Source of the DNA: a virus
Lineage: Duplodnaviria; Heunggongvirae; Uroviricota; Caudoviricetes
IMG/VR virus record: IMGVR_UViG_2778261224_000004
Length of the DNA stretch: 47,754 bases
Reading direction: 5' to 3' (one strand)
The position numbers were made by a program, and so were the translations under genes. The number at the start of each line of letters is the position of its first letter. Within the stretch, counting starts at the first letter, position 1. Under the pieces are notes generated by a model. That model saw nothing but the letters and a program-made list of their open reading frames with translations, was not told the origin of the DNA and made no database searches. Positions 40,136 to 41,835 of the stretch are shown here, piece after piece.

Positions 40136-40201
40136 TTCTGCCTACCAATAAACCCACGCTATGTGGTTGTCTCTGTTAAAATCCCGCCGTATTGACATGA
40201 A

Positions 40202-40299
40202 TGCGCCATTGGTGGACACTTTCCGAGCCGTAGCAAAATCTACGGTCGGGATTGGAACCCCGTGGACACAATGGCGCATACCGCGTTAGCGGTTTTTTT
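40202..40299 (+). ncRNA. Candidate structured regulatory RNA upstream of the antirepressor operon (c4-like position)
   Basis: Promoter-like TTGTCT-N17-TATTGA at 40167-40195 overlapped by operator-like CCCACGCTATGTGGT; 11-bp long-range stem 40201-40211 / 40269-40279, internal hairpin CCGTAG..CTACGG, terminator hairpin ACCGC-GTTA-GCGGT plus seven T at 40280-40299. Confidence 0.35.
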
Positions 40300-40465
40300 A
40301 TGCGTAAAGCACTGCTACACCCAAATTATGGTGGGGCGTGCGGGGGAGTCGTAAGACTCGCCGGTTCGTCATTGTGTCCGGTAGTTCCAACCCTGCACGT
40401 CTCACCACCCAATGATTGGAACCTGACGGTGGTGAGTATCCTTAACCTTTAAGGGAATCATCACA

Positions 40466-40657
40466 ATGACAAACCTACCCAATGACTATTACGTCAACCT
40501 CGTAAAGATCCTTCTCAAGAAAGCCTCATACGCCGATAAATTCCGCCTGGCTGAAATCATCGAGCGCGAAGCTATGCGCATCGCCAGCAACGATAACGCT
40601 GTTTCTGACGCAAAAATCTCCCTCGTAACCAAAGTAGTTATGGGAGGTGCAAAATGA
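40466..40657 (+). CDS. Small ORF translationally coupled to the antirepressor gene (icd-like position)
   Basis: 63-aa ORF; stop overlaps antirepressor ATG (ATGA); 9-bp hairpin CTCACCACC..GGTGGTGAG just upstream of its RBS. Confidence 0.45.
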   Translation: MTNLPNDYYVNLVKILLKKASYADKFRLAEIIEREAMRIASNDNAVSDAKISLVTKVVMGGAK

Positions 40658-41835
40658 AAACGCTTCCGACCGTTAACACCCTACAGCCTATCCTGCATAA
40701 CCAGATCCCCGTTATTACTACTGAACTACTGGCGCAATTGTATGGAACCGAGCGCCAACGTCTGACAAACAATTTCAATAGAAACAAGGAACGTTTTATA
40801 GAAGGTAAACACTTTTTTAGGATAGAAGGTAAAGAGTTACGAGAGTTGAAGAACAAAAACTCTTTAAGAGTTCCTGTGAGAGTAGTTAACGAACCATCTT
40901 TAAGAGGGTTACAAATTCCCCCGAAAGTTCGCTCCCTCATCCTCTGGACAGAACGCGGGGCTGCACGTCACGCCAAAATGCTTGAAACTAACCAAGCGTG
41001 GGATGTGTTCGAACGGCTGGAAGACTGCTATTTCAGCCAGAACGCGCAAACGGCCGCGACCGTAACCGTCTCGCCAAGCAATGCTCGTGAGGTTGTCGAT
41101 ACGCTCAACGCCAAACCGATGTTTTACATTAAAGTGTGCAACAACGAGCCACTCACAACCTCAGCCGATGTTGCCCAGGCATTCAGCACCACAAACAATT
41201 CCATCGTTATGGCCATCGATGCGCTACGCATTCCTCGCACGGCTGCGGCGCGTCACTTCTTTAAAGAGCAACGACCGCTGGAAGGAAGCGACCGCGAAAT
41301 AACAATCTATCGCATGACAAAAGACGGATTTACCTTGCTCATGGAGAGCATCGACGGTCCAGGCGTGAAAGATATCAAGCTGGCCTACATTGAAGCCTTT
41401 AACGCTATCAGCAGCGTGTTAAAAACACAGTACGAGCGTGATCTGGCTAAACGACTGTACCAGGAAAAAACGATTATCCGCGCGGCAACAGAGCATAATC
41501 GGCTATTAACGGAACCGAACTACAGGAAGGAACTAATCAAGGAGTTTGACAAGGCAACAGGGAAAACCAAAGCGGCGCTAAATCTGCCAGCAATGACTCA
41601 GGAAAATGTGATATCAGCCTTACTTCTTGATCTGCTCAGAAACGCCAGAGCACTTATCAGCTTTGACGAAAACCTGAATCCTCAGCTCAAGCTACTACCA
41701 CCGACAGGCAAAGTAGTCGACCAGGCTGATCACAACAGCATACTCAGCGTACTGGATGCAAACCTGCCAGCCAGGACACTACAGGATCTGATAAAAACAT
41801 GTGCTGATAAGCTGGCACAGAAAAGCAGACAATAA
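40654..41835 (+). CDS. Antirepressor-like protein (ORF6N-like N-terminal domain plus Rha-like domain)
   Basis: 393-aa ORF; N-terminal ..PVITTELLAQLYGTERQRLTNNFNRNKERFIEGKHFF.. and central ..MTKDGFTLLMESIDG.. Confidence 0.7.
   Translation: MKTLPTVNTLQPILHNQIPVITTELLAQLYGTERQRLTNNFNRNKERFIEGKHFFRIEGKELRELKNKNSLRVPVRVVNEPSLRGLQIPPKVRSLILWTERGAARHAKMLETNQAWDVFERLEDCYFSQNAQTAATVTVSPSNAREVVDTLNAKPMFYIKVCNNEPLTTSADVAQAFSTTNNSIVMAIDALRIPRTAAARHFFKEQRPLEGSDREITIYRMTKDGFTLLMESIDGPGVKDIKLAYIEAFNAISSVLKTQYERDLAKRLYQEKTIIRAATEHNRLLTEPNYRKELIKEFDKATGKTKAALNLPAMTQENVISALLLDLLRNARALISFDENLNPQLKLLPPTGKVVDQADHNSILSVLDANLPARTLQDLIKTCADKLAQKSRQ

Follow-up and report, generated by a model that had tools for sequence, protein, structure and literature searches.

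What controls the antirepressor-type gene ant (40654-41835, + strand) of the tailed-phage record IMGVR_UViG_2778261224_000004, and is its upstream region an immunity module of the kind known from phage P1? The 47,754-nt stretch analyzed here (the window) carries, in front of ant, a palindrome, several repeats and a leader cistron of 63 aa (ORF63, 40466-40657, + strand). The initial annotation had read this region as a possible c4/icd/ant-type module, with a ~100-nt antisense RNA at 40202-40299. Its overall layout stands: a c4-family RNA, a coupled small open reading frame (ORF), an antirepressor-type gene and a palindrome reproduce the organization of P1 immI. The icd label and the assignment of the individual parts do not. 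We conclude with good confidence that the region is an immI-type secondary immunity operon of an Escherichia coli phage-plasmid with a P1-type c4 switch. The case is built on RNA family membership, complementarity, covariation, gene overlap and conservation.

A covariance search against c4-like models, which the initial annotation had put forward as a check, locates the antisense RNA of the module at 40324-40412 (+ strand), about 100 bases downstream of the earlier placement and inside the segment that had been taken for the leader. The match to Rfam C4 (RF01695) scores 77.8 bits against a gathering score of 45 and covers the full model (positions 1-87). The segment folds with -46.6 kcal/mol (z -5.7; 0 of 200 shuffles as good), and the minimum-energy fold has the family shape, a long closing stem around two hairpins. 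Recognition segment a' is the loop of hairpin 2 (40363-40379), and segment b' is the single-stranded GTTCCAA that lies 3' of this hairpin (40384-40390). P1 c4 is a 77-nt RNA whose 5' end is cut from the operon transcript by RNase P; alignment to it predicts that mature c4 of the window extends from about 40330 to 40409.

The region upstream of c4 holds an IsrK-like short RNA with target sites for c4 (the a1/b1 element, 40227-40299, + strand). Rfam isrK (RF01394) matches 40227-40299 with 65.8 bits against a gathering score of 50, and c4-a1b1 (RF03163; "a1, b1 targets of C4 antisense RNA") matches 40214-40266 with 37.8 bits, below its gathering score of 46.7. The isrK and C4 matches were obtained at gathering thresholds, the c4-a1b1 match in a permissive scan; as its name demands, both a1 and b1 are complementary to c4. 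The element comprises two internal hairpins (40227-40245 and 40247-40262), with b1 (TTGGAAC, 40252-40258) in the loop of the second, followed by a1 (GGACACAATGGCG, 40264-40276) and an intrinsic terminator, ACCGC-GTTA-GCGGT plus seven T (40280-40299). The internal hairpin and the terminator had been recognized in the initial annotation, as had an 11-bp long-range stem between ATGCGCCATTG (40201-40211) and CAATGGCGCAT (40269-40279), whose arms are indeed 100% complementary. The segment 40201-40299 folds with -49 kcal/mol (z -5.9).

Each c4 segment has one predicted partner upstream and one downstream of the RNA. For b', these are b1 (duplex -10.4 kcal/mol) and b2, a second TTGGAAC just downstream of c4 (40416-40422; -8.8 kcal/mol). 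For a', they are a1 (-24.9 kcal/mol) and a2 (CACAATGACAAACC, 40462-40475, + strand), with a duplex of -18.6 kcal/mol over 40453-40476. Site a2 spans the ORF63 ATG (40466-40468), and the Shine-Dalgarno (SD) sequence AAGGGA (40451-40456) lies just upstream of it. The inverted repeat formed by a' and a2 (40363-40376 / 40462-40475) is complementary at 13 of 14 nt (93%). The initial annotation had anticipated complementarity to the ribosome-binding site (RBS) region of the small ORF; it exists at 40462-40475, but it comes from the a' loop of c4 and not from 40202-40299. Pairing between 40202-40299 and 40380-40465 is likewise found (-43.5 kcal/mol), but as a1/b1 with c4 a'/b'. The direct repeat GATTGGAACC (40250-40259 and 40414-40423), already reported, is the b1/b2 target pair; it covaries with c4 and is more than a chance repeat. 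A b site and an a site are combined at only two places in the 47.7-kb window, and no further c4 targets were found in it. A 12-nt "a2" at 40426-40437, returned by a search that allows G-U pairs, was discarded as spurious; the a2 assignment was made from Watson-Crick-only runs, a repeat finder and duplex energies. In the minimum-energy fold of the full leader, a1/b1 are paired in cis with a'/b', which agrees with the inactive 'structure A' of the Gifsy-1 locus.

The pairing scheme was compared across 19 diverse loci. These include P1, Stx-converting and other lambdoid phages, ST64B, an isrJ-carrying Gifsy-like Salmonella phage, a P2-like Citrobacter phage, plasmids of Klebsiella, Enterobacter and Arsenophonus, and three sister plasmids. 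All 19, and 3 further ORF63 loci, have an isrK and/or c4-a1b1 match ~100 nt upstream of the C4 match. The 7-nt b' is perfectly complementary to b1 and b2 in 20 of 20 loci, at fixed positions and with about 12 different heptamers: b1 occupies position 26 of the IsrK-like element, or position 23 in two loci whose first hairpin is shorter, and b2 is located 1-7 nt past the c4 3' end. Over 23 loci including P1, b1 and b' are 94.4% paired with double changes at 6 of 7 pairs (0 of 500 shuffles, slid controls at most 48%), and b' and b2 are 91.3% paired, again with double changes at 6 of 7 pairs (0 of 500 shuffles, slid controls at most 44%). Most of the few unpaired cells belong to indel-misaligned rows (P1, L013, L020, L024). 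In every locus a' matches an a2 that overlies either the SD or the initiation codon of the first ORF, and the mean Watson-Crick run is 8.15 nt for cognate a'/a2 pairs vs 4.76 nt for non-cognate ones. The sister plasmids are 85-94% identical in the region, yet their a' and/or b' differ, with matching target-site changes at all four sites: relative to the window, a' is changed in L014, b' in L016 and both in L015. Judged from their sequences, such swapped specificities form the pattern expected of heteroimmune variants, as for P1 vs P7.

The same loci help to sort the remaining repeats and stems. The direct repeat GTGGACAC does occur twice (40212-40219 and 40262-40269), as first reported. In L014-L016 changes in the second copy accompany those in the c4 a' loop, whereas the first copy, in the -10 region, is fixed; the repeat is probably incidental. 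The 11-bp long-range stem was rejected as a family-wide structure: its left arm falls in the promoter spacer, and its right arm has other covarying partners across families, namely the c4 a' loop and TATGCGT (40299-40305). It has 9 bp in L014 and L015, 11 bp with one G-U in L016, and 6 bp in L024, and is possible in transcripts that start upstream. The alternative partner defines a helix that would bracket the terminator in read-through transcripts (GCGCATA 40274-40280 / TATGCGT 40299-40305, + strand). This helix covaries and has at least 5 bp in 21 of 23 loci (GCGGACA/TGTCCGT in P1, GCGTACAA/TTGTACGC in L012); its GCGCAT also forms part of the 11-bp stem. A further alternative hairpin, at 40401-40436 (+ strand), is predicted for the unprocessed transcript. 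This is the 9-bp hairpin of the initial annotation, CTCACCACC (40401-40409) with GGTGGTGAG (40428-40436), which exists but is not positioned over the ORF63 RBS, as it ends 15 nt before the SD. It has 7-10 bp in 21 of 23 loci with covariation (e.g. TTCGCCACC/GGTGGCGAG in L006) and holds b2 in its loop. Because the c4 3' arm CTCACCACC is here paired with a conserved GGTGGTGA downstream, the comparison suggests that this hairpin competes with the c4 closing stem.

Two annotation issues surfaced around these RNAs. The isrK and c4-a1b1 families match the same element in nearly every locus (window 40214-40299; L002 1417-1511; 20 others), and the P1 copy scores 47.9 bits with isrK and 55.5 bits with c4-a1b1. 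isrK sits outside the Rfam C4 clan, although the two families seem to describe one element. Furthermore, RefSeq 'ash family protein' calls and PF10554 (Phage_ASH) matches overlie c4/IsrK RNA genes (L015 1082-1369, L019 920-1087, L024 1165-1458; proteins P0001, P0003, P0008), and some of them extend ORF63 upstream across c4. These annotations look like protein calls made on RNA genes.

The 63-aa ORF with a stop codon overlapping the antirepressor start had been identified correctly: the ORF63 TGA and the ant ATG overlap as ATGA (40654-40657), and this overlap is kept in all ORF63 loci checked. ORF63 belongs to phrog_7886 (E 7e-46) and has no Pfam or NCBIfam match. Its 31 homologues are mostly 63 aa long and occur in Escherichia, Salmonella, Klebsiella, Yersinia and Hafnia; the lowest identity is 73% among full-length (63-aa) proteins and 63% in a truncated one. 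The initial annotation had cast the small ORF as Icd-type. This was ruled out for lack of similarity: the Icd-like model NF033153 fails to match ORF63 while it does match the leader of L019, BLASTP gives no alignment between ORF63 and P1 Icd, and the two proteins fall into separate PHROGs. In Hafnia, Yersinia enterocolitica and Salmonella, isrK and C4 again precede ORF63, and the genes that follow with the 4-nt overlap encode ORF6N alone, P22_AR_N, or ORF6N plus Rha. With the same RNAs before it and varied antirepressor-type genes behind it, ORF63 is, by sequence comparison, a real, narrowly distributed protein family that serves as a portable leader cistron for c4-controlled antirepressors. 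The most distant homologue (73% identity) is that of Enterobacteriaceae bacterium ESL0689 (L021). There, an sRNA-Xcc1-type RNA (RF02221, 76.5 bits, 1382-1465) replaces the Rfam C4 match upstream and no overlapping downstream gene is called; the RNA regulator that goes with this leader gene may be a different or a diverged one.

Inside the 3' end of ORF63, a hairpin (40618-40647, + strand) is predicted to sequester the ant SD by pairing CTCCC (40618-40622) with the GGGAG of GGGAGG (40642-40647). The segment 40610-40670 folds with -12.7 kcal/mol (z -2.2). Together with the ATGA overlap, the modeled hairpin fits translational coupling of ORF63 and ant.

The Ant protein (393 aa) consists of an ORF6N domain (Pfam, 5.6e-22), a Rha domain (Phage_pRha, 4.4e-12) and a C-terminal region. 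It matches phrog_8244 and many 'anti-repressor' PHROGs, two of which, phrog_63 and phrog_1726, are also matched by P1 Ant. Its first 129 residues share 66% identity with the c4-linked antirepressor of the Stx-type phage PhiR12_4, and 53 residues align with 74% identity to the AnrP-like gene of Gifsy-like SW-37. Identification of the protein as P1 Ant itself finds no support in BLASTP, which detects no significant pairwise similarity. In one close relative, NZ_CP020518.1 (L025 8015-9157; 99.8% identical in the control region), ant is represented by two partial pseudogenes (ORF6N, Rha), and the antirepressor is therefore not intact in all family members. Just 3' of ant in the window, a GC-rich hairpin (41839-41860) is a possible terminator and operon end; the scan called a terminator on the minus strand only, and the plus-strand T-run is weak.

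The operator-like palindrome of the initial annotation, ACCCACGCTATGTGGTT (40152-40168, no strand assigned; core CCACGCTATGTGG, 40154-40166), is present and proves to be a copy of an overrepresented motif. AACCAC-N5-GTGGTT has 9 matches in the window vs 1.44 expected (0 of 100 shuffles reach 9), and 7 of the 9 are intergenic, within 36786-46882. The sites are at 36786-36905, 37640-37656, 39487-39503, 40152-40168 and 46866-46882, with copies upstream of an IncFII RepA gene and of an XRE/HTH_3 gene (36942-37598, 218 aa), the latter in a divergent region. The repeated palindromes likely constitute the operator set of the prophage repressor, dispersed over the genome like P1 C1 operators, and the copy at 40152-40168 is probably bound by this main repressor. 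An Op51-like sequence of P1 holds the same relative position.

Two promoters can be proposed, both from reading by eye and from conservation across related loci. The immI/isrK-type promoter (40192-40220, + strand) comprises a -35 TTGACA (40192-40197), a 17-nt spacer and a -10 GACACT (40215-40220), with a predicted start at ~40227. In about 20 of 24 loci (not in L003, L010, L017 and L021), a TTGAC-type -35 and a -10 are separated by 17 nt, and 6 nt lie between the -10 and the start of the isrK model; most of them read TTGACn-17-TATAtT, and P1 has TTGACC-17-TATAGT. In Gifsy-1, the isrK promoter drives the operon downstream (PMC4825925). The upstream candidate is an extended -10, TGtTAAAAT (40174-40182, + strand), which is kept in L001 and L014-L016. 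The palindrome overlaps its -35 region. Placed directly after the palindrome, this -10 may represent a second, repressor-controlled promoter.

The element that carries the operon is ~48 kb long. Circular plasmids of 47-50 kb from E. coli and E. fergusonii match it at 96-99.8% identity, and the three Yersinia pestis myophages vB_YpM_39, 41 and 44 do so at 90-96%; the phages, close relatives, were obtained as virions. Its phage structural genes are accompanied by genes for ParA, for a RepA of IncFII type and for toxin-antitoxin systems, and this gene content identifies the element as a phage-plasmid. Among 5,426 complete E. coli genomes, 84 contain a match to the control region, in most cases on a plasmid. 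The published account of Yersinia phage HQ103 was set aside, as it concerns an unrelated 32-kb phage.

These parts suggest the following switch. Transcription would start at ~40227 from the conserved promoter, and the second, operator-overlapped promoter may fire at ~40190. The short a1/b1 (IsrK-like) RNA would stop at the terminator, and a c4-type RNA of ~80 nt (40330-40409) would be excised from read-through transcripts. Its b' (GUUCCAA) and loop a' (GGUUCGUCAUUGUG) would pair with b2 (40416-40422) and a2 (40462-40475) on the operon mRNA, and the a2 duplex would cover the ORF63 start codon and block ORF63 translation. Because the cistrons overlap and the ant SD is locked in a hairpin inside ORF63, Ant synthesis would require translation of ORF63. 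In P1, Rho-dependent polarity additionally acts on a leader that is left untranslated. The a1/b1 decoy would be the stronger competitor for the same c4 segments. Acting in cis, it would keep the long transcript folded in an inactive form; as the separate short RNA it would act in trans, titrating c4 and switching translation on (cf. IsrK in Gifsy-1). Ant would then inactivate the prophage repressor. In P1 and P7, c4 prevents Ant synthesis (PMC8546580; PMC12197685). For the present operon, we infer c4 processing, the translational block, coupling, Rho polarity and antirepressor activity.

A more speculative extension, to which we assign little probability, makes decoy activity depend on which promoter fires, so that the a1/b1 RNA would be a dedicated anti-antisense decoy. 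Transcripts from ~40190 would carry ATGCGCCATTG (40201-40211) and lock a1 in the 11-bp stem with 40269-40279, silencing the decoy, and those from ~40227 would expose a1/b1. If this were true, occupancy of the palindrome by the main repressor would set the level of free c4 and thereby Ant release, and independently recombining a/b segments would yield a combinatorial set of heteroimmune plasmid types.

Several observations weigh against a P1-type switch in this operon. The consensus scan called no promoter in 40150-40225, and the -10 of the conserved promoter (GACACT) is weak in the window. Because ORF63 is unrelated to Icd and BLASTP yields no significant alignment between Ant and P1 Ant, the putative antirepressor activity of Ant rests on family annotation and on analogy with AnrP. 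The c4 effector pairs more strongly with the a1/b1 decoy than with a2/b2, the b2-a2 spacing of 39 nt is larger than in P1, and the combined duplex with the leader (-25.7 vs -17.7 +/- 3.2 for shuffled effectors) is equaled by 11 of 500 shuffles. Expression, processing and binding are predictions from sequence for this element. In the Gifsy-1 study, constitutive STnc1160 failed to relieve IsrK toxicity, and the authors explain their data without a trans-acting c4-like repressor (PMC4825925).

An alternative is that short-RNA activation of the Gifsy-1 IsrK type is the main logic. Here, the 73-nt a1/b1 RNA would open a self-inhibited long mRNA in trans and switch on ORF63 and ant, while the main role of the c4 fold would be to inhibit in cis, as a pairing partner, rather than to repress as a diffusible RNA. 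We consider this possible but rather unlikely as the principal mechanism. It draws on an isrK match above the gathering score in an element with its own terminator, on the full-leader fold that joins a1/b1 to a'/b' in cis, on the much stronger binding of the c4 effector by a1/b1 than by a2/b2, and on direct genetics in Gifsy-1 (PMC4825925). It leaves unexplained, however, why a2/b2 covary with c4 and sit at the RBS or start codon in every locus. Moreover, no orf45-like ORF runs through c4 in the window, where the frame from the conserved ATG at 40328 stops after 8 codons. Short-RNA activation is also compatible with the P1-type switch and may be its induction arm.

Immunity by transcription termination, as with CI/seqA/seqC of P4 or the CA RNA of N15, is unlikely. 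In such a scheme, pairing of the c4-like RNA with nascent a1/b1 and a2/b2 would cause premature termination. An intrinsic terminator does lie directly behind a1/b1, C4 and c4-a1b1 share one Rfam clan (CL00128), and the Gifsy-1 authors liken IsrK to P4 seqA and STnc1160 to CI (PMC4825925). Nevertheless, the terminator scan found no site between a2/b2 and ORF63 or within ORF63, the location of a2 on the SD or AUG in all loci points to a translational target, and a stop at 40299 would also end c4 synthesis. A decayed remnant, in which the RNA motifs are kept by descent and ant is no longer regulated or used, is very improbable. The split ant of at least one sister plasmid (NZ_CP020518, with partial ORF6N and Rha genes) speaks for it, but in the window ORF63 and ant are intact and all four target sites match c4; the coordinated specificity swaps in sister plasmids need selection on pairing, and virions of close relatives (Yersinia phages vB_YpM_39, 41, 44) have been isolated. 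We give next to no credence to the original proposal that the 40202-40299 RNA is itself the antisense repressor and pairs with the ORF63 leader or RBS. The segment folds well and matches a known Hfq-binding sRNA family. It carries the a1/b1 targets, though, and cannot pair with the ORF63 RBS, because GATTGGAACC is a direct repeat, so that a1/b1 and a2/b2 run in the same sense. What the segment can pair with inside 40380-40465 is c4 b' (40384-40390); a' (40363-40379) is situated just upstream of this range. The proposed ~100-nt RNA starting at 40202 would also have its first 25 nt between the -35 and -10 of the conserved promoter.

The P1-type reading provides a testable annotation for a previously unannotated control region, in which RefSeq lists "hypothetical protein" and "ORF6N domain-containing protein" and no RNA genes, and it brings the isrK and c4-a1b1 Rfam families together as likely descriptions of the same element. 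The swapped a/b specificities of near-identical plasmids are natural reagents for testing RNA-based heteroimmunity. The findings leave the known mechanism unchanged.

Other features of the phage-plasmid include genes for a HigB-like Gp49 toxin and an HTH antitoxin (43744-44396, - strand) and a tRNA-Met gene (28377-28452, - strand). A ryfA (timP-like type I toxin) RNA (142 bits, 39559-39855, - strand) encloses a 40-aa hydrophobic ORF (MKKYCMCIFIVVTGALF...). It contains one copy of a 14-nt exact repeat, CTGCTTGTGCTTGC (39776-39789), and the second copy (40034-40047) belongs to a candidate plus-strand sRNA of ~100 nt within 39999-40134, which has a promoter-like site (39999-40026), a terminator (~40103-40134) and a weak RNAI-like match. 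By its sequence, this candidate is a possible TimR-like antitoxin, antisense in trans to the toxin RNA; duplex folding of the two RNAs is no better than for shuffles, and the 14-nt repeat is the sole support. RefSeq has no annotation at either place.

Among known systems, the isrK-orf45(STnc1160)-anrP-isrJ locus of Salmonella Gifsy-1 resembles the window in its IsrK-like RNA, read-through terminator, downstream c4-like RNA and ORF6N-type antirepressor, the last related to the Gifsy-like SW-37 copy as described above. In Gifsy-1, transcripts pass the IsrK terminator, and the long RNA is silent as a mid-IsrK segment pairs with a downstream segment (PMC4825925). On native gels, the compensatory pairs G28A/C162U and G31A/C159U brought back the inactive wild-type conformer; they also reduced the elevated basal translation of anrP, and IsrK supplied in trans increased anrP translation >100-fold (PMC4825925). 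The spacing of G28/G31 and C162/C159 fits the b1:b' heptamer of the related SW-37 locus (L008), not of the Gifsy-1 sequence itself, after a 3-nt offset. Within this offset on SW-37, the b1:b' contact of the P1 c4 system is, by sequence comparison, the counterpart of the IsrK/orf45 pairing in Gifsy-1. The published Gifsy-1 study likens IsrK to P4 seqA and STnc1160 to P4 CI and leaves P1 c4 unmentioned (PMC4825925), and a 2025 review handles IsrK and c4 separately (PMC12197685). The window differs from Gifsy-1 in that orf45 runs through the c4-like RNA there, whereas a separate 63-aa ORF follows c4 here. In addition, the Rfam search of the window returned no isrJ, and in place of the AntQ cascade the downstream target is presumably the repressor of the plasmid-prophage.

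The P4 CI RNA (seqA/seqB/seqC) and the N15 CA RNA (icd-antABC) are likewise processed from their own operon and have sites on both sides. Unlike these systems, which act by premature transcription termination and whose sequences were not compared directly, the window has its site on a start codon with no terminator after it. The c4-linked ant genes of Stx-converting and other lambdoid phages (PhiR12_4, 24B, VT2phi_272) share the isrK plus C4 pair and the homologous N-terminal ORF6N region of the antirepressor. In those phages, however, c4 acts directly on the ant RBS without a leader ORF, whereas the window has ORF63 interposed and an Ant with an added Rha domain.

The closest correspondence is with immI of P1 and P7. 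Its parts follow one another as they do here, from an operator (a putative one in the window) and promoter through a1/b1, c4 and b2/a2 to the small ORF and the overlapping ant. Also shared are the RNA family, the two-segment (a, b) recognition with specificity variants among close relatives, and the 4-nt overlap of leader ORF and ant. In contrast to P1, the leader of the window is phrog_7886 and not Icd, and Ant, which combines ORF6N and Rha, gives no BLASTP match to P1 Ant. Site a2 is placed over the start codon, not over the SD, at a distance of 39 nt from b2. The putative operator is palindromic (17 bp) as opposed to an asymmetric C1 site, and the operon resides on a 48-kb plasmid whose RepA is of IncFII type. 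The operon is thus of a known kind, that of P1/P7 immI and Gifsy-1 isrK. It varies in minor ways: its leader is not Icd, a2 is at the start codon, the antirepressor-type protein joins ORF6N to Rha, and the putative operator is a palindrome.

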